From Trueperaceae bacterium (GTDB taxonomy: Bacteria > Deinococcota > Deinococci > Deinococcales > Trueperaceae): a stretch of DNA of 19,556 bases. The stretch is from NCBI GenBank assembly GCA_040905465.1, contig JBBDRK010000047.1:1-19556 (forward strand), given 5' to 3'. Below are positions 806-8,215 of this stretch, one piece after another (within the stretch, counting starts at the first letter, position 1; each line of letters opens with the position of its first letter). The notes under the pieces are model-generated. The model searched no databases. It had not been told where the DNA came from and saw nothing but the letters and a program-made list of their open reading frames with translations. The position numbers and the translations under genes were made by a program.

Positions 806-1759
806 TCAGCGCGAGGCGACCTCGTCGCCTACCTCGAGTTTGGAAAGCGGCTCGCCGCTTTCCAAACAATGTTCGACGACCGCGTCCTCGAGGGTGTTCA
901 GTATTGCTGGGATATTTCCGAGACCGGAGAGAAAGCGTAAGCGCAGCACCGGTATCAGACGAGCGAGCGCAAGATAGTGCTGCATCATCCGCTTCTTCCT
1001 GTCGGAATCGCTGAGGCTGAAGCAGTAGGCGTGCGGCAAGATCGCTGAGAACGCGGCGGCGGGCATGAGTCGCTCAACTGTCGCAACTCGACTTGCGGCA
1101 CCGGCGGGAGTCTCACCAGTCTCCGCCCGCTCACCTGCCTGCCGCTCCAATACACAGATCGCCGCCAGCTCGTGTTTGCCGGTTGCAATGACCGGTCGAG
1201 GTCCCTTTACCCGAACGGACTCGCGGGACCGCTCGCCGAAATGTTCGGCTGACGCCTGTCGCAGGCGGAGGGAAAACGGTATCTGCGAAAGGATGGGATA
1301 CGGTCCGGCAACGTCGAACGCTACGGCATCATCGGCGTACAGTTCATGCCCTCGACGGGTCATCGCGTAAGCGAGCGTCGACTTGCCGGTCTCCGATACG
1401 GCACAAAGAGCAAGCACGCCCCGGGGCATCACCACGGCGCTCGCGTGAAGCACCTCGCGGCCCGCGAGCTGAAGCGCCATCGGCAGGACGGTGCGGTAGT
1501 AGGTGTCAACCACGTCCGTCGACGGGATGCTCGGGCCGGGCACCACGGTTGCACTCCCCGCGGCATCGAGCCGGAAGTCGCCTATCCCTACTATGTGCAT
1601 CCACGGTTGACCGCCGGCTACCTGACCGTAAGCGCACTCGCGGCCCTGATTGTCGCACCACACCTCGATCTCGGTGGAGGAGGAATCCCATCGCGGCGGG
1701 GCCAACACGTCGTCGAACCGTAAGCCCTCTACGGTAAGCTCGGCAGACTCGAGACTCAT
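806..1759 (-). CDS. HPr kinase-like RiPP (lasso) peptide kinase (PadeK/ThcoK/PsmK-like)
   Basis: Contains LHASAV, Walker A-like AVSETGKSTL and YADD motifs of HPr-kinase-fold proteins, directly downstream of the precursor. Start placed at ATG 1759 (GAGGAAGG SD). The upstream ATG 1813 lies inside a hairpin. Confidence 0.85.
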   Translation of the reverse strand: MSLESAELTVEGLRFDDVLAPPRWDSSSTEIEVWCDNQGRECAYGQVAGGQPWMHIVGIGDFRLDAAGSATVVPGPSIPSTDVVDTYYRTVLPMALQLAGREVLHASAVVMPRGVLALCAVSETGKSTLAYAMTRRGHELYADDAVAFDVAGPYPILSQIPFSLRLRQASAEHFGERSRESVRVKGPRPVIATGKHELAAICVLERQAGERAETGETPAGAASRVATVERLMPAAAFSAILPHAYCFSLSDSDRKKRMMQHYLALARLIPVLRLRFLSGLGNIPAILNTLEDAVVEHCLESGEPLSKLEVGDEVASR

Positions 1760-1787
1760 CGAAACCTTCCTCGGTTGAATTTGAGGC

Positions 1788-1821
1788 GCCTGGCCACGGC
1801 CGAGTTCGGCCATGACCAGGC
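1788..1821 (-). promoter_or_regulatory. 15-bp mRNA stem-loop between precursor and kinase
   Basis: The minus strand reads GCCTGGTCATGGCCG-AACT-CGGCCGTGGCCAGGC, fully paired with two U-G wobbles. No U-tract follows. Confidence 0.7.
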
Positions 1822-1837
1822 AATCGAACGGAGACGG

Positions 1838-1987
1838 TTAGAGCTTGTCTTCGAACCCGACTCCAGGCACCTTGCGGGGCTCGCCAGGATCACCGGCGGT
1901 GCCGCTGAGCTTGCCGCCTCCCAGTTGGACGACGTCACGGACGCGCCCTACGTACTTCACTTTCATGGGCTTCCAAGGCTTCTTCAT
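1838..1987 (-). CDS. Lasso-type RiPP precursor peptide, 49 aa: MKKPWKPMKVKYVGRVRDVVQLGGGKLSGTAGDPGEPRKVPGVGFEDKL
   Basis: Near-perfect SD AGGAGGTGA (2000-1992) precedes ATG 1987. The ORF lies between cyclase and kinase. The basic leader W-K-P-M-K-V-x3-G resembles the RRE-binding (Y/W)xxPxLxxxG motif, and the core is Gly/Pro-rich. Confidence 0.88.
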   Translation of the reverse strand: MKKPWKPMKVKYVGRVRDVVQLGGGKLSGTAGDPGEPRKVPGVGFEDKL

Positions 1988-2027: not shown

Positions 2028-3965
2028 CTAGACGCGCGGGCGAACCCACGATTCCAGGCTGAGAATTCGCCAGAGGTCATCGATGTGGCGCTTGTCACGA
2101 GAGGACACCACCTCGGCGATGAAGCGATCCAAACCGCGCGGTTCGATTATCCCGAGATCGGCCAGCGCCGGCGCCCCGCCGAGTTCTCGCCAAGCGGCGG
2201 CGCTCTGGTCGAACAGGGTCTCGGCGAAGAAATCCCGCGACAGCAGCTTCTTCTGGCGGTCGAACCCGAACCCCGGAAACCTCCGTTCCAGGTCCTCCCT
2301 CACGAGTCCCTTGCTGCGGCCGCCACGGTTCAGCAGATGCGGCGGAACTCGATAGAGGAACTCGATCAGATCCGCGTCCCAGTAGATGTCGAATTGCCTC
2401 ATGCCGAGGCGCCGACCGCTGTCGAAGATCTCCTCCACATCGAGCGCGAACAGCGGGTGTTGCAGCGAGTGCTCCATCTGGGCGAAGTAATGTCCACCAA
2501 CGCCGGGCCTCGAGGGCCGCGCCGATCGCGCCCGAGCCCGTTCTTCGATCCGCTGTTCCAGGCGTTCCCGCAGGCTGGCGTCGGGCGCCAACCAGGCAGG
2601 GATTCGGCTCAGCCTCTCGGCGATACCGTTCTCGAGTCTCCGCTCCTGGAGAGTCGGAGCGAGCGCCTCCAGAAGCTGCCGCTGTCGCGATTTGGCAAGC
2701 GGTCTCAGACCGTTTGACCACACGATGTTGCGCCACAGAGGCAGGGACGGCAATCTCAGCGAGCGCTGCAATGCCGCCGCGAAGCGCACGAGTCCGGGAA
2801 GATCGAGCGAAGCCAGCAGGTCCGCCGCCAGGAGCGGGGTGACGGTCAGCCACTCGTCCCCTCCCCCGCCCGTGAGGATCGTTCTGCAACCATGCCTTTT
2901 GCCCTCCAGCGCCAGCTGATGATAAGCGGGGAGCCACACGTTCTGCGGCGGGGCGGAGCCGCCAACGGAGAAGTCGAGGGCGGTCTGCACGAGTCCCTTT
3001 TCCCCAACGACGGAAACGAGATCCATGGTGGTGATCGGGATTCCCAGGCTGTCGGCGACTCGGCGCTGTGTCTCCTCTTCGCTGACCTCTCCGGGAAAGA
3101 GCAGTGACAGAGCTCGCGGACCGGGCGTTCCGTTGCCCCGCGAATGCTCCACGGCGGCCGCCGCCACCGACACCGAGTCGAGGCCGCCACTGAGGTAGAT
3201 TCCCGCTGGTCCTTGCCTCAACGCCCTTCCAACCGACTGGTCGAGCAAACGGCCGAACTCACCTAGCTCGCTCTCGTCGACCCACTCCGCTCCCGCCCCG
3301 ACAGGGGGCGGTCGCCAGTACCGCTCCACCCTCAACGACGTTCCGTCGGCCACCAACAGGCTGCCGGGGGGCACCCGCCGCAGGCCACGGTAAAAGGTCT
3401 CCTCCAGGCCGGGATGATGACGGGCCAGCAGGCCGGCGGCCAACGCCCGGTCCACGGCCAGTCCCGGTCCGGAAGCCCGCTCAAAAGCCTTCAGCGAGGT
3501 GGCGAACTGCAGTACGTCGTCCTGCCTGCTATAGAACAACGGAAATACTCCGACACGATCGCGCGCTGCCAGAAGCCGACTCCGGCGGCCGTCCCAGAGG
3601 CAGAAAGCAAAGGTTCCCTTCAGCCGCCGAACCGTCTGTTCACCCCAAGTGAGATGTGCAGCGAGGACCAGGTCCGCATTGTTCTGCGGCGCGTCCCGGC
3701 CGACGTCGGCAGCGGCGATGATCTCCTGCCGGTTGTATATCGTTCCCTCGAAAACCACGGCAGAACCGTGCTCGGCAGCGACTTCCGGTCGCTGGCCCGG
3801 TTGGAACCGGAGGCTCAGCACGCTACCGCCGGATGCCGCGATGGCGAGGCAGCCACGATCCTCTGCCGGCGCCGAGGCACCGTCGTCGAGGGTAACCAGC
3901 CACTCGCCGGCGAAAGGACCGGTCTGCTCGCCAGGCCGAAGCGCGGTGCTAAGCGCCATCGACAC
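2028..3965 (-). CDS. Lasso cyclase (protein C), asparagine synthetase-like ATP-dependent macrolactam synthetase
   Basis: Contains LSGGLDS PP-loop, TGGGGDE, ARDRVG..PLFY and KGLVRE motifs. It lacks the N-terminal Cys of true AsnB and is clustered with RRE and B2. Confidence 0.92.
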   Translation of the reverse strand: MSMALSTALRPGEQTGPFAGEWLVTLDDGASAPAEDRGCLAIAASGGSVLSLRFQPGQRPEVAAEHGSAVVFEGTIYNRQEIIAAADVGRDAPQNNADLVLAAHLTWGEQTVRRLKGTFAFCLWDGRRSRLLAARDRVGVFPLFYSRQDDVLQFATSLKAFERASGPGLAVDRALAAGLLARHHPGLEETFYRGLRRVPPGSLLVADGTSLRVERYWRPPPVGAGAEWVDESELGEFGRLLDQSVGRALRQGPAGIYLSGGLDSVSVAAAAVEHSRGNGTPGPRALSLLFPGEVSEEETQRRVADSLGIPITTMDLVSVVGEKGLVQTALDFSVGGSAPPQNVWLPAYHQLALEGKRHGCRTILTGGGGDEWLTVTPLLAADLLASLDLPGLVRFAAALQRSLRLPSLPLWRNIVWSNGLRPLAKSRQRQLLEALAPTLQERRLENGIAERLSRIPAWLAPDASLRERLEQRIEERARARSARPSRPGVGGHYFAQMEHSLQHPLFALDVEEIFDSGRRLGMRQFDIYWDADLIEFLYRVPPHLLNRGGRSKGLVREDLERRFPGFGFDRQKKLLSRDFFAETLFDQSAAAWRELGGAPALADLGIIEPRGLDRFIAEVVSSRDKRHIDDLWRILSLESWVRPRV

Positions 3966-4215
3966 TCAACACCTGTTCCTCTGTCAACGACTGCAGAAGC
4001 CCCTCGACCTCCGTGCGCAGCGACTCCGACTCCACGCTGTACTCGTCGGCCAGCCGCCTCTCCATCTCATCCTTGCTGAGTCCGTCGTTCGCCATCTCGT
4101 AGAGTTTGCCCGCAGTGTCGTTCAACTCGAGGATTCGATCGGTCGCCAGGTTCACCAACACCATCGACTCTCCCAGGCGCTGCGCTACCACATCAGGATT
4201 CGGTTTCCACCTCAT
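3949..4215 (-). CDS. PqqD-family RiPP recognition element (lasso B1/E protein)
   Basis: 88 aa with pattern P.VV...LGE.MVLVNL......ELNDTA..LYE....L..EY.V....LR.EV..LL..L....VL. GGGGG SD present. Overlaps the cyclase start. Confidence 0.92.
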   Translation of the reverse strand: MRWKPNPDVVAQRLGESMVLVNLATDRILELNDTAGKLYEMANDGLSKDEMERRLADEYSVESESLRTEVEGLLQSLTEEQVLSVDGA

Positions 4216-4281: not shown

Positions 4282-4782
4282 TTAGTCATGCCCATGGCCG
4301 CCGGTACCTCCACGCAGCGTCACCATGCTCTTGAACGCGAGGAGTTCGCCCCCGCCTATCAGGACTTCCTGCTGCCACTCCAGCCAGGCATGTCCTTGTA
4401 CGTCGCCACGGCTCGTGCTGGCCATGCCGACATGGACTTCTGAAGGGCTGCCTCGTTGGCGCAACAGTACCTGCAGCGCCAAGGCCCGGGTGAGGCAGGT
4501 CGCGCTCGGCACCCTGCTCGAAACGGCGGTAACGGCCCAGGCGAGTCTCCTTGCCCGATAGGACGTCAACGGGCGGGTTTCGATGCGGCGCTTCGTCAAT
4601 GCCCGGTGCAGGCGCGAAAGGGGAACCAGCCAGAGCGCGAGGCGCACGAACAGAATCACGGGCAAGACGCGCAGGAGAAGGCGTCGGTCCTCCTGGCGCA
4701 GGGTCAAAAGTTGAAGTGGCGGAATTCGGCCAATCGACGAAACCGCATGACACATTCTCGTCTTCAGCGCTGTACCAGGCAC
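4282..4782 (-). CDS. Lasso peptide leader peptidase B2 (transglutaminase-like)
   Basis: Contains ATCLTRALAL (catalytic Cys) and GHAWLE (catalytic His) motifs. Start is GTG 4782 (GAGGGG SD) or ATG 4755. Confidence 0.92.
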   Translation of the reverse strand: MPGTALKTRMCHAVSSIGRIPPLQLLTLRQEDRRLLLRVLPVILFVRLALWLVPLSRLHRALTKRRIETRPLTSYRARRLAWAVTAVSSRVPSATCLTRALALQVLLRQRGSPSEVHVGMASTSRGDVQGHAWLEWQQEVLIGGGELLAFKSMVTLRGGTGGHGHD

Positions 4783-4988: not shown

Positions 4989-5043
4989 GAGCAGTTTGGA
5001 CGGCGCCGGCGAGGCGAGGCACCAGGGAGGTCGAGGGGCGTCA

Positions 5044-6924
5044 ATGGATTCACCGGTCAGGGAGTCCGACGAGAACCGGTACGCGGAATCCACTGCGTCC
5101 ACCGGCACCTTTCTCGATCTTTTTCTGAACCTCCTGTCGTGGCGCTTCGCCGGACTCGTCCTGTTGACGCTACTGATCGCTCTGGCATCAGGAATTGCCC
5201 TGGTGATGCTCATACCGATGCTCCAGGTTGCAGGTCTGAGCGTGCCGGTCGGCGCCGGGGAACGAGTGGCTGAAACGGTTTTCACCGGCATGAAAACGCT
5301 CGGCGTAGAGCCGAACTTGCTCTCGGTGCTGGCGCTGAATCTCTTAATCGTCGCCGTAACTGCGTCGTTGTCGCGTCTTCAGGCAGTCAGCTCGGCAAGA
5401 TTCAACCAGTCGGTGGTCAGGAGCCTGCGGCTGGACCTGTACCGGAACCTCTCTCGCTCCGACTGGCTCTACTTCGCGGGGCAGCGTAGCTCTCGCTTCT
5501 CGCATATGCTGCTCGGCGAGCTCGAGCGGGTGGGCGGAGCCGTCTCCGCCCTGGTGTCGCTGCTGGTCAGCGCCGGGAGGACTCTGGTCTACACCGCCAT
5601 AGCGGTCACGCTGTCACCGATCCTCACTGGCCTCACGCTCGCCCTTGGAGGCGGCCTGTCCCTTGTCCTTCTTCGCCGTACCAGCATGGCCCGTGCTATC
5701 GGGCAGGGTGTGTCGGAGGCCTACGAGGCGCTCTACTCCACTACTGCCGAGCATCTGGCGGCCATGAAACTCACCAAGAGCCACGCGCTGGAGCCGCGCC
5801 AGACCCTCGAGTACGCGGAGGTCAGCCGTCGCGTCGAGGCGGCTCATGTCGATACCGCCCGAAATCAGGCCGACGTGACTCTATGGCTACAGGTCGGGAG
5901 CATCGCGGCGCTCAGTGCGATCGTCTATGCAGCTCTGGGTATTCTGGCGCTACCCGTTACGACCGTGCTGCTCCTTCTGTATCTGTTTTCGAGACTCCTG
6001 CCGCTCCTGGCAGGAGTGCAGAGAAACTACCAGTCGTTCATCAGCCTCCTGCCCGCCTACGGGCGGCTGAGGAGCGCATTGGAGCAGAGCGAACGCGCCC
6101 GGGAGACCGTCAGCGAGCAGATGGATCCGTTCGTGTTGAGGCGGGGGATCGAGCTCGAAGGCGTAACGTTCGAATATCCGAATGGCGACGGCGCGGCGGT
6201 CCTGGAACTCGATCTGTATTTGCCCGCCGGCCAGACGACCGCAATCGTCGGACCCTCCGGATCCGGCAAGAGTACCGTGGCCGACTTGGTGATCGGCCTG
6301 ATATCCCCAGGTGCGGGGGTGGTCGAGATCGACGGCGAGCCCCTCACGCCCCAACGGCATAGGGCCTGGCGCAGCCGCGTGGGTTACGTCTCCCAGGACC
6401 ACTTCCTCTTTCACGAAAGCATTCGCACCAATCTGTCGATTGCGCGGCCGGAGGCGAAAGAGCAGGAGCTGTGGGACGCTCTGGAATCGGCCGCGGCGGA
6501 CTTCGTCGGCGAGCTGCCAGACGGGCTGGATACCGTTGTCGGAGACCGCGGCCTGCGGCTGTCGGGCGGGGAACGGCAGCGCCTGGTACTTGCCCGCGCA
6601 CTGCTGCGCGACCCGTCCCTGCTCGTCCTGGACGAGGCGACGAGCTCCTTGGACACCGAGAACGAGGAGCGGATCAAGGAGGCCATCGATCGGCTCGCCG
6701 GCAGAATGACCATCCTGGTGATCGCACATCGCCTGGCGTCGATACGTTCAGCGCACGCGATTCACGTCCTCGAAGGGGGCCGCCTCATCGAGTCCGGGAC
6801 CTGGACGACGCTTCTCGAACGCGAGCACAGCCGCTTTCGGACGTTGGCGGCAGCGCAGGGTCTGGAACTGAATCCAATCAGTCCGACCGCGTTCGATCGG
6901 CCAGCAGAGTCCCTTCCACGCTGA
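5044..6924 (+). CDS. ABC exporter, fused permease + ATPase (lasso D-type)
   Basis: N-terminal TM helices, Walker A GPSGSGKST, Q-loop, signature LSGGERQR, Walker B LLVLDEATSSLD and H-loop IAHRL. No C39 peptidase domain is visible. Start placed at ATG 5044 after GAGGGG. Confidence 0.93.
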   Translation: MDSPVRESDENRYAESTASTGTFLDLFLNLLSWRFAGLVLLTLLIALASGIALVMLIPMLQVAGLSVPVGAGERVAETVFTGMKTLGVEPNLLSVLALNLLIVAVTASLSRLQAVSSARFNQSVVRSLRLDLYRNLSRSDWLYFAGQRSSRFSHMLLGELERVGGAVSALVSLLVSAGRTLVYTAIAVTLSPILTGLTLALGGGLSLVLLRRTSMARAIGQGVSEAYEALYSTTAEHLAAMKLTKSHALEPRQTLEYAEVSRRVEAAHVDTARNQADVTLWLQVGSIAALSAIVYAALGILALPVTTVLLLLYLFSRLLPLLAGVQRNYQSFISLLPAYGRLRSALEQSERARETVSEQMDPFVLRRGIELEGVTFEYPNGDGAAVLELDLYLPAGQTTAIVGPSGSGKSTVADLVIGLISPGAGVVEIDGEPLTPQRHRAWRSRVGYVSQDHFLFHESIRTNLSIARPEAKEQELWDALESAAADFVGELPDGLDTVVGDRGLRLSGGERQRLVLARALLRDPSLLVLDEATSSLDTENEERIKEAIDRLAGRMTILVIAHRLASIRSAHAIHVLEGGRLIESGTWTTLLEREHSRFRTLAAAQGLELNPISPTAFDRPAESLPR

Positions 6925-8215
6925 GCGGCACCCCGTCCAGCTCCAGCCGCGGGTGTTCGTTGCCATCGGGTCCGGCGACCCAACTCAAGTCGGCCTGATA
7001 CGACCGGCGGCGAAGCCCAAGCAGCAGCGCTATCGCTTGCAGCTCGCGGTCCTCGTACCCCGCCCGTCCCAATATCCGCAAACAGCGATGGATGCTCATC
7101 CGAATGCGGCGCCACCGTCCGGCAGTGAGCCGACGAGGCGCACGCCTGGGCATGGCGAGGGAACTGGCCGGCGACCGAAGGCTTTCTCTGAGTTGCGCAA
7201 GCCGCAACGCCTCCAGAACGGCCGGCAACTCGCGCAGCACGGCGAACGGCGCAATCAATATCTCGGCCAGCGCTAGCATCGACCGCTCCAGATAGCGATT
7301 GCCGCGCTCGGGAGCTACCAGCAAATTCCACAGATGGCGCTGGAGCCGCGAGGGGGCTGTAAGGTTGCAGACGCCTTCGAACGGGTCACAGCGGCTGCGG
7401 AAGATACGGTATGTATTCGCGCATCCGAGCTCGATCGCACGGTCCTCGAGCTCCCATGGCTCGAGCTCGAACTCCTCCTTCAGGATTCGGAAGTCGAGAT
7501 AGTCGTGAGCGCGCAGTTCCCAGTCCTCGGGCGACCAGGAACGATTGAGCACGAGGCCGATAAGCACAGCGTCCACAGGGTGGAGCTGTCGCACACGAAC
7601 CCCGTCCCAATCGATTACTTGCGATTTCGCCCAGGCCTGCCGGGTAATCCTCTCCTGTCGACCGTGCGACGCGAGGTGATTGTGATTGTTGTGTACGAGC
7701 CGGCGGTGCACATCGAGGTGGACGCCGGAGCGCCGGTGTCGCAACTGCATAACTTCGTGTCCGCTATAGCTCTCCGTCCTACGGGCATGCGCCGTCGCTG
7801 GCCAGTCGGCATGCCACAGCAACTGCCAGCACTGTTCCTGAGCGAGATCGCCCGCTCGCACCGCGTCGGATGGGCGAATCAGAAGGTCGACGTCGCTGTA
7901 GCGCCGTTGCGCAGTGGCCGGGTAGACGAACTCGGCGAGATGGAACCCTTTGAAAACCAGAGCCTCGATTCCTGAACGTTGCCAGCTCCGCAACAAACGC
8001 CTAAGTTCGCCGCGAACGGCGAGATGGCGAGCGCTGGCGACCATCTCGGCAGTCCTCACGACCGGCCCGGGGTTGCTGAGAACTCCCGCGGCGTAGCTGG
8101 CGAGACCGAGTTCGCTGAGCAGCTGTGGATCAGGAGCTGTGTCAGGCGTGTCCGTCAGAAATCGTTCCACCTGCCTGGCGTGTCTTCGGCGTGAGCCGAT
8201 CCGTGGCGAGGCCAT
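6878..8215 (-). CDS. Nucleotidyltransferase family protein (NTP_transf_5-like) with C-terminal degenerate B2-like domain
   Basis: Contains LVFKG.HLA..VY.....R.YSDVDLLI and LDVH motifs typical of RiPP-cluster nucleotidyltransferases. The C-terminal ~120 aa align by eye with the B2 gene of this cluster. Confidence 0.85.
   Translation of the reverse strand: MASPRIGSRRRHARQVERFLTDTPDTAPDPQLLSELGLASYAAGVLSNPGPVVRTAEMVASARHLAVRGELRRLLRSWQRSGIEALVFKGFHLAEFVYPATAQRRYSDVDLLIRPSDAVRAGDLAQEQCWQLLWHADWPATAHARRTESYSGHEVMQLRHRRSGVHLDVHRRLVHNNHNHLASHGRQERITRQAWAKSQVIDWDGVRVRQLHPVDAVLIGLVLNRSWSPEDWELRAHDYLDFRILKEEFELEPWELEDRAIELGCANTYRIFRSRCDPFEGVCNLTAPSRLQRHLWNLLVAPERGNRYLERSMLALAEILIAPFAVLRELPAVLEALRLAQLRESLRSPASSLAMPRRAPRRLTAGRWRRIRMSIHRCLRILGRAGYEDRELQAIALLLGLRRRSYQADLSWVAGPDGNEHPRLELDGVPLSVEGTLLADRTRSD

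Follow-up and report, generated by a model that had tools for sequence, protein, structure and literature searches.

Gene N of the 19,556-nucleotide stretch of Trueperaceae DNA analysed here over its whole length (contig JBBDRK010000047.1; hereafter the window) encodes a 445-residue nucleotidyltransferase of the PsmN/LppN type, and comparison of sequence profiles confirmed its C-terminal tail as a genuine homologue, by common descent, of the lasso peptide leader peptidase B2 (Transglut_core3). To judge from its residues the tail is catalytically dead, its nucleophile having been lost, and we tentatively propose, with slightly less than even confidence, that the dead domain serves as a holding module for the precursor peptide, bound either alone or as the complex of its leader with B1, the PqqD-like recognition element (RRE) for peptides that are synthesized on the ribosome and then modified (RiPPs). 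The gene and the positions that carry the argument are:

6878..8215, minus strand: gene N, 445-aa PsmN/LppN-type nucleotidyltransferase with C-terminal pseudo-B2 domain (open reading frame (ORF) translation; PF14907, E 7.6e-23)
7400..8044, minus strand: NTP_transf_5 catalytic domain, residues 58-272 (Pfam envelope, PF14907)
6911..7240, minus strand: pseudo-B2 (degenerate Transglut_core3) domain, residues 326-435 (hhalign; library-wide hidden Markov model (HMM); secondary structure of the model; structural neighbours; conserved columns)
7112..7114, minus strand: codon of W368 (conserved-column analysis)
7046..7048, minus strand: codon of Arg390, aligned with the catalytic Cys (Cys96 in the cluster B2; joint alignment)
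6953..6955, minus strand: codon of His421, aligned with the catalytic His (His131 in B2; joint alignment)

An earlier note on this DNA had matched the tail by eye with the B2 of the same gene cluster, and all three of its string pairs are found where it placed them: VLRELPAVLEALRLA, DRELQAIALLLGLRRRS and EHPRLELDG are residues 326-340, 389-405 and 420-428 of N, and their partners are residues 36-49, 95-111 and 130-138 of the cluster B2. Codon 326 starts at position 7240 of the window, and the span given there for the domain, 6878-7240, therefore covers residues 326-445 and the stop codon. The likeness is not significant in BLASTP of N against the cluster B2 (E 2.3). Scans of Pfam and NCBIfam returned no family for the tail at a threshold as loose as E<=10, whether the whole protein, residues 281-445 or residues 306-445 were submitted, and the curated profiles PF13471 and NF033537 gave no match to N, these two segments included, at the same threshold. 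A sequence search of the PDB with B2 returned one match, a glutaminyl cyclase at E 0.45, and no solved relative; the same search with the alignment of N returned 0 matches, and an Atlas feature search with residues 322-445 returned no named family, with scores of 0.87 or less.

Three profiles were built for the region that follows a conserved R-C-D-P from 36 loci fetched from species genomes, together with database proteins: one of 37 non-identical degenerate tails, one of 12 transferase-fused B2 domains that are intact, and one of 9 stand-alone B2s (that of the window and 8 from the loci). With hhalign, the degenerate tails aligned to the stand-alone B2s with a probability of 81% (E 1.2e-5, 105 columns), placing residues 326-434 of N onto residues 36-144 of B2, in the register that had been read by eye. 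Restricting the profiles to the domain gave 87.2% (E 3.9e-6) for the same pair, 98.3% (E 2.5e-14) for the degenerate tails with the 12 intact fused domains, and 99.4% (E 8.5e-22) for the intact fused domains with the stand-alone B2s, while 21 controls, made by reversing the profile once and shuffling its columns 20 times, reached at most 0.7%, with E of at least 0.076. An HMM made from 14 degenerate tails only (alignment A5) was searched against 1.84 billion representative proteins and matched 41 of them at E<=1e-3, PF14907 being present in 30 and PF13471 in 7. The matches include a weakly intact fused domain, matched in place (P0051, E 6.8e-10), and a 147-aa PF13471 protein (P0054, E 2.9e-8), along with nine short, fragment-like proteins of no family and one of 1004 residues (P0056) that is likely false. 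The degenerate form is a rare one, and it is joined to the intact form by a continuum of intermediates, for example P0051, P0046 and P0031.

In the joint alignment Arg390 of N occupies the Cys column, as the earlier note had said. Cys is found there in all 12 intact fused domains and all 9 stand-alone B2s and in none of the 37 degenerate tails, which carry Arg (20), Pro (7), Ala (3), Asp (2), Gly (2) or, once each, Leu, Ser and Glu. The catalytic His is present in 12/12 intact fused domains, 9/9 stand-alone B2s and 2/37 degenerate tails, and His421 of N is therefore not a feature of the family; the third, acidic residue found no reliable place. The positions conserved in the degenerate tails are L330, P331, L363, W368, R377, R380, L401, R403, R404, L424, G428 and L431. 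W368 is invariant (37/37), whereas most intact fused domains have a residue other than Trp there. In 33/37 degenerate tails, 0/12 intact fused domains and 3/9 B2s an Arg stands in the old Cys column or at the residue before it; together, W368 and the Arg at or beside the former Cys position may constitute a new binding site. The ratio of nonsynonymous to synonymous substitution rates (dN/dS) of the domain was 0.25, 0.43, 0.52, 0.44, 0.58, 0.74 and 0.34 in seven pairs, and that of the transferase half ranged from 0.10 to 0.45 in the six pairs with computable dS. By these estimates the pseudo-B2 domain is under purifying selection and is not decaying freely.

The full-length model of N, predicted by AlphaFold2 (AF2) from a 50-sequence alignment, has a predicted local distance difference test score (pLDDT) of 94.2 and a predicted TM-score (pTM) of 0.90, and in it the tail packs tightly on the transferase; folded alone, the domain reached a pLDDT of 84.3. 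The tail consists of helices at residues 307-342, with the conserved L330-P331, at 365-381, which is basic and holds W368, and at 387-403, starting from the former nucleophile site, followed by strands at 408-414 and 420-426, the latter starting at about His421. A helix at Arg390 followed by a strand at His421 is, in the model, the layout expected of a transglutaminase core. Structural comparison of the AF2 domain model with VIA-align placed chains of the transglutaminase/papain fold at ranks 1-4, 6, 8 and 10, among others, with Z from 5.3 to 3.1; the top 50 include MOA/PSL protease domains, arylamine N-acetyltransferases (NATs), TglA, protein 4.2 and LapG, as well as PeiW/PeiP, TG2/TG3, protein glutaminases, SpvD and SseI. 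For the ESM Atlas model of residues 325-438 the nearest cluster is annotated "lasso peptide biosynthesis B2 protein" (TM 0.59, 106 aligned residues), and the other nine rows comprise eight with a transglutaminase, Peptidase_C93 or NAT family and one without a family. The transglutaminase-like fold anticipated by the earlier note was thus borne out by the neighbours of two predicted models and not by a Foldseek search of the PDB. As modelled, the tail has a transglutaminase-like or papain-like core fold, on which the two independent predictions agree with modest scores.

The fusion of this transferase to a B2 domain is also found with the peptidase intact. In our first homologue search PF14907 and PF13471 occurred together in 2/32 relatives (2/30 on rescanning), and in one of them, P0032, the PF13471 part coincides exactly in the alignment with the tail of N, and its Cys faces Arg390. 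A single ORF was matched by both the N and the B2 query in 13/36 loci. We distinguish three types of protein. Type I, a transferase with an intact B2, comprises L008, L011, L013, L014, L016-L018, L020, L021, L025, L027-L029, L031-L033 and P0032, and Pfam confirmed both families in 4/4 of the type I proteins tested; its hosts are Deinococcus pimensis, D. murrayi, Meiothermus/Thermaceae, Longimicrobium and Gemmatimonadales. Type II, with the degenerate domain, comprises the window, L001-L007, L009, L010, L012, L024, L026, L030 and P0003-P0027. Type III, with a degenerate domain and a second, intact B2, comprises L015, P0029, P0047, P0050, P0055 and P0061; these proteins are 613-646 aa long with the intact PF13471 at the C-terminus (L015:361-2238), and they could have arisen by fusion of N to a downstream B2 gene, in a gene order such as that of L001. 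The control genome of Deinococcus radiodurans also matches both PF14907 and PF13471.

Neighbours of the type I genes include PqqD RREs and HprK-like proteins, an RRE being present in 10/16 loci (in 9 within 4 kb; in L029 at ~8.6 kb). Intact fusions stand beside both an RRE and an HprK-like protein at L011:9902-12567, L027:5655-8337, L014:8732-11284 and L033:9824-12051, in Gemmatimonadota, Deinococcus and Thermaceae. A query search of the fetched loci gave no match to a cyclase or to a separate B2 in any intact-type locus, and an all-vs-all search of conserved small ORFs near the 16 intact-fusion loci, which did recover the RREs, revealed no shared precursor.

A tree of the transferase half (56 rows, unrooted, with midpoint rooting for drawing only; L019, L022, L023, L024, L034, L035, L036, P0028 and P0030 were left out as truncated, frameshifted or over-extended) unites 16 of the 17 type I rows in one group, with a Shimodaira-Hasegawa-like approximate likelihood ratio test (SH-aLRT) support of 95. 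The architecture labels need three changes on this tree, which, being unrooted, gives neither the number nor the direction of the losses. Since a Cys-His pair, once lost, is unlikely to come back, we infer that the fusion of the transferase to an intact B2 was ancestral and that degeneration took place once or a few times. The domain was not retained from the cluster's own B2: its nearest intact relatives are B2 domains of other lineages that are already fused to a transferase. Recent copying of the tail from the adjacent B2 was likewise considered and rejected, because the tail matches the fused intact domains (E 2.5e-14) more closely than it does the stand-alone B2s (E 3.9e-6); it was thus inherited with the gene and not captured locally.

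The transferase half of N scores 81.8 bits against PF14907 (cut-off 31.2) and is the sole match above cut-off in the source genome. D108, D110 and K89-G90-F91 are invariant or nearly so, and D168 and H170 nearly invariant, in alignments of 30 and of 50 sequences; G90, D108 and D110, which make up the G and D-x-D metal-binding motif, are invariant in both. D108 and D110 are presumably the equivalents of D134 and D136 of PsmN. Foldseek matched the model of N to the nucleotidyltransferases MenT1, LnuA and ANT(2'')-Ia with E from 2e-5 to 1e-3, and a whole-protein Atlas search aligned other PF14907 clusters, of 402 aa and, in Bacillota, of 546 aa, over residues 16-422 and 16-441, where these figures are end points only. 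Because G90, D108 and D110 are kept, the transferase half is probably active.

The source genome (3.53 Mb, 81 contigs, 95% complete) carries in the window, which has ~65% G+C, what is by its gene content a paeninodin-like lasso peptide cluster, in which a precursor, cyclase C, split B1/B2, an HprK-like kinase and an ABC exporter are all encoded; for the kinase, B1 and the cyclase the matches lie below the NCBIfam curated cut-offs:

806..1813, minus strand: K, HprK-like kinase (PF07475 E 4.9e-5, TIGR04352 E 3.4e-4, both below cut-offs; conserved neighbour at related loci)
1838..1987, minus strand: A, candidate precursor of 49 aa (small ORF lying between C and K; L001-L003, L007, L010, L026 and L034 have homologous peptides in this position)
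2028..3965, minus strand: C, lasso macrolactam cyclase, asparagine-synthase-like (PF00733, GATase_7; NF033535 E 2.9e-38, below cut-off)
3949..4215, minus strand: B1, PqqD-like RRE (NF033530 E 2.6e-8, NF033536 E 7.7e-7, each below the curated cut-off; aligns with B1s of related loci)
4282..4782, minus strand: B2 leader peptidase, intact, with Cys96 and His131 (PF13471 E 3.5e-22; NF033537 E 1e-23)
4996..6924, plus strand: D, ABC exporter (PF00005, PF00664; divergent from the B2 operon, convergent on N)
6878..6924, convergent: 47-base overlap of the 3' ends of N and the ABC exporter, on opposite strands

Candidate precursor A has the leader motif W-x-P-M-x-V instead of the published [Y/W]-x-x-P-x-[LVIFA]; its core begins near GGGKLS and its C-terminus reads ...FEDKL, with no final Ser, and its homologues in L001-L003 likewise have no C-terminal Ser. 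A jackhmmer search from this precursor found relatives in degenerate-type loci only. Directly downstream of N, L002 (11356-11550, plus strand) and L003 (6291-6554, plus strand) have a second precursor-like small ORF that shares the leader and ends in a short hydrophobic tail, ...VKIAVISGVVPD; no counterpart of it was found in the window. Elsewhere in the source genome, on another contig, a second PF13471 B2 (E 1e-25) adjoins a cyclase-like gene (G000:C18:22364-23823, locus L039) with 31% identity to the window C over 309 aa, and this is probably, from its genes, a second lasso cluster that has no N gene.

The earlier note had also tied N to the cluster, and N does adjoin B2, B1 and kinase genes in 8/36 fetched loci. 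In the window it is encoded with the HprK-like kinase, a discrete RRE and the exporter, and it has the same neighbours in L001-L003, L007, L010, L026 and L034. In L001-L003 it is syntenic with B2/B1/C/K, and in the other four the clusters are cyclase-less, with B1/K/A/K/D/B2 (B2 was not seen in L034). These cyclase-less clusters (L007:2367-8578, L010:4287-11014, L026:3840-11353 and L034:460-5711) hold two or three HprK-like kinase paralogues and an exporter, and their precursors combine the leader of the window (W-x-P-M-x-V ... V-V) with Ser/Arg-rich cores; they resemble the linear polyphosphorylated peptide (LPP) systems of Bacillota, with a B2 in place of the SpI peptidase. A further clade of degenerate N genes lies outside recognisable RiPP clusters (L009:2198-8734, L030:1809-9178 and L004:9950-14626), next to genes for UDP-glucose dehydrogenase, family-2 glycosyltransferases, a sugar transferase, RmlA/RmlC-like (dTDP-sugar) enzymes and an MsbA-like exporter.

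We suggest the following course of events. The ancestor would have been a transferase fused to an intact B2 domain and encoded beside a PqqD RRE and an HprK-like kinase. In the lineages of the window type, most members of which have a stand-alone B2 where there is enough flanking DNA, the cutting would be done by that B2, and the fused copy has lost the nucleophile (in all members), the His (in most) and the last strand or strands (in all). The remnant would have been kept as a folded module against the transferase, gaining the invariant W368, the basic helix and the Arg at the old active site; no longer cutting, it would most likely still hold the precursor, alone or as the B1-leader complex, and this could allow the transferase to work on the peptide phosphorylated by the kinase either before the leader is removed or regardless of its removal. 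Docking of the precursor or of the RRE by the dead domain, as the earlier note had proposed, is plausible. A bolder version, which we regard as possible but unlikely, is that the dead domain was repurposed as a reader of the phosphorylated precursor, and that the intact fusions represent a branch of linear phosphorylated RiPPs that depends on B2, has no cyclase and is at home in Deinococcota and Gemmatimonadota, the lasso-associated enzyme being descended from it. The Arg conserved in the old cleft (33/37), flanked by the invariant Trp and the basic helix, would on this account let the cleft grip the phospho-peptide or the leader-core junction and pass the peptide to the transferase.

Several observations weigh against a role of the tail in holding the precursor. 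The degenerate tails align to residues 36-144 of B2 only, and type II tails stop soon after the ELDG strand, which means that part of the B2 sheet, its last strand or strands, is missing, and B2 is reported to meet B1 through a beta-sandwich that includes this sheet (PMC13381572). In all three loci checked of the clade outside RiPP clusters (L004, with full 10-kb flanks, and L009 and L030, on short contigs crowded with sugar-nucleotide and glycosyltransferase genes) no RRE, B2 or precursor was seen, so that here the dead domain persists with no RRE close by. In the closest pairs the domain has a dN/dS roughly double that of the transferase half. The structural scores are modest, with Z below 8 and short of the caution line of the tool, and a TM of 0.59 on a short stretch, and the best Foldseek match of the domain model in the PDB, a cyanase at E 0.21, is not meaningful. 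Finally, the precursor candidate has no terminal Ser, unlike the characterised substrates of PsmK and PsmN, and the chemistry of N may therefore differ from theirs. A complex predicted from full-length N and B1, with alignments of 50 and 11 rows respectively, scored 0.00 in two runs made without controls and speaks neither for nor against binding.

Much of the same evidence could be read as that of a purely structural relic, a dead domain that is kept for the stability of the transferase or as a domain interface and binds neither peptide nor RRE. We consider this quite possible, if still doubtful: the tight packing predicted for the tail (pTM 0.90), selection that is relaxed but purifying, the truncated sheet with its unconserved His, and the domain's persistence in loci that have neither an RRE nor a B2 all agree with it. 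Nevertheless, W368, the basic helix and the Arg at the old site, which are specific to type II, look like gained function and not like simple decay, and the intact fusions adjoin RREs, so that the ancestral domain certainly handled RRE-bound peptides. It is improbable that the pseudo-B2 instead acts as a timing decoy, competing with the real B2 for the complex of B1, leader and precursor and thereby shielding the cleavage site until phosphorylation and tailoring by N are done; a nucleophile-less B2 homologue does occur in a cluster with an active B2 and one B1, and kinases of the HprK-like type act on leader-bearing precursors (PMC6993621), but the truncated sheet and the loci without an RRE are difficult to reconcile with such competition.

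The two remaining explanations concern what the tail is. That it is still a protease using other residues has very little probability: His421 is present in N, but a His is found in only 2/37 tails, and the nucleophile column, with Cys in 0/37 and a single Ser, is nearly always Arg, Pro, Ala, Asp or Gly. Chance resemblance of an unrelated helical/beta tail, for which the BLASTP value of 2.3 and the failure of Pfam, NCBIfam and Foldseek against the PDB to find a match could be invoked, is refuted by the significance of the profile-profile and profile-sequence comparisons with their controls and is contradicted further by the continuum of intermediates (P0051, P0046, P0031) and by the structural neighbours; we give it next to no weight. 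Our preferred reading is still, tentatively, that the dead B2 domain holds the precursor for the transferase.

Of the tailoring enzymes in the paeninodin-like lasso and LPP pathways, those of the N type are understood least, the chemistry of PsmN being still unsettled (PMC6993621; PMC13381572), and the finding that part of the N subfamily carries a cryptic B2-derived module offers a concrete hypothesis for how such enzymes find their peptide. The combined PF14907 and PF13471 architecture is already visible in precomputed Pfam annotations; the degenerate domain escapes the curated profiles, and genome-mining tools therefore annotate only half of the N protein. No paper dealing with a pseudo-B2 or with the fusion of a transferase to B2 turned up in the literature searched. 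The intact, intermediate and dead forms, together with dead forms that carry a second intact B2, provide a natural series for studying the passage from a RiPP protease to a pseudoenzyme, and the intact fusions point to uncharacterised cyclase-less cassettes of RRE, kinase and transferase-B2.

Among known systems, N resembles PsmN of the pseudomycoidin cluster and LppN of linear polyphosphorylated peptide clusters, likewise enzymes of an uncharacterised NTP-transferase family whose genes keep company with those for an HprK-like kinase, a discrete RRE and an MsbA-like exporter (PMC6993621; PMC13381572); the likeness seen is one of family, gene company and structure matches. A structure-based likeness of PsmN to ANT(2'') has been reported, and N also matches ANT(2'')-Ia. 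N-type enzymes are known from Bacillota: PsmN is needed for one or two hexoses to be attached to pseudomycoidin at its phosphorylated C-terminal Ser, and doubly mutating the Asp pair predicted to bind metal leaves it inactive (PMC6993621; review PMC9266682), while LppN was inactive in a heterologous host (PMC13381572). The precursor of the window, with no terminal Ser, differs in this from the substrates of PsmK and PsmN.

The lasso B2 leader peptidase (PF13471, NF033537), which is named as MEROPS C96 in PMC10318531, is homologous to the tail of N over residues 36-144 of B2 and is found in the same gene neighbourhood. The order of elements is also shared, with an L-P helix, a helix from the nucleophile position and a strand from the His position. 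Unlike B2, the tail has Arg390 for the nucleophile, a His that is unconserved in its family and no last strand or strands; it falls below all curated thresholds, is fused C-terminal to a nucleotidyltransferase and has an invariant Trp and a basic helix of its own. A transglutaminase-like fold without the catalytic Cys is shared with erythrocyte protein 4.2, an inactive transglutaminase with a non-catalytic role, which is among the structural matches (Z 4.1), although no sequence relationship exists beyond the fold. The intact PF14907 and PF13471 fusions, such as that of Deinococcus pimensis DSM 21231 (L014), have in common with N the transferase subfamily, the linker R-C-D-P ... E-R-G and the position of the B2-type domain, whereas their Cys and His are intact, their C-terminal strands are present and neither a stand-alone B2 nor a cyclase is nearby. 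These fusions have the appearance of counterparts to the cyclase-less LPP systems that depend on a B2.

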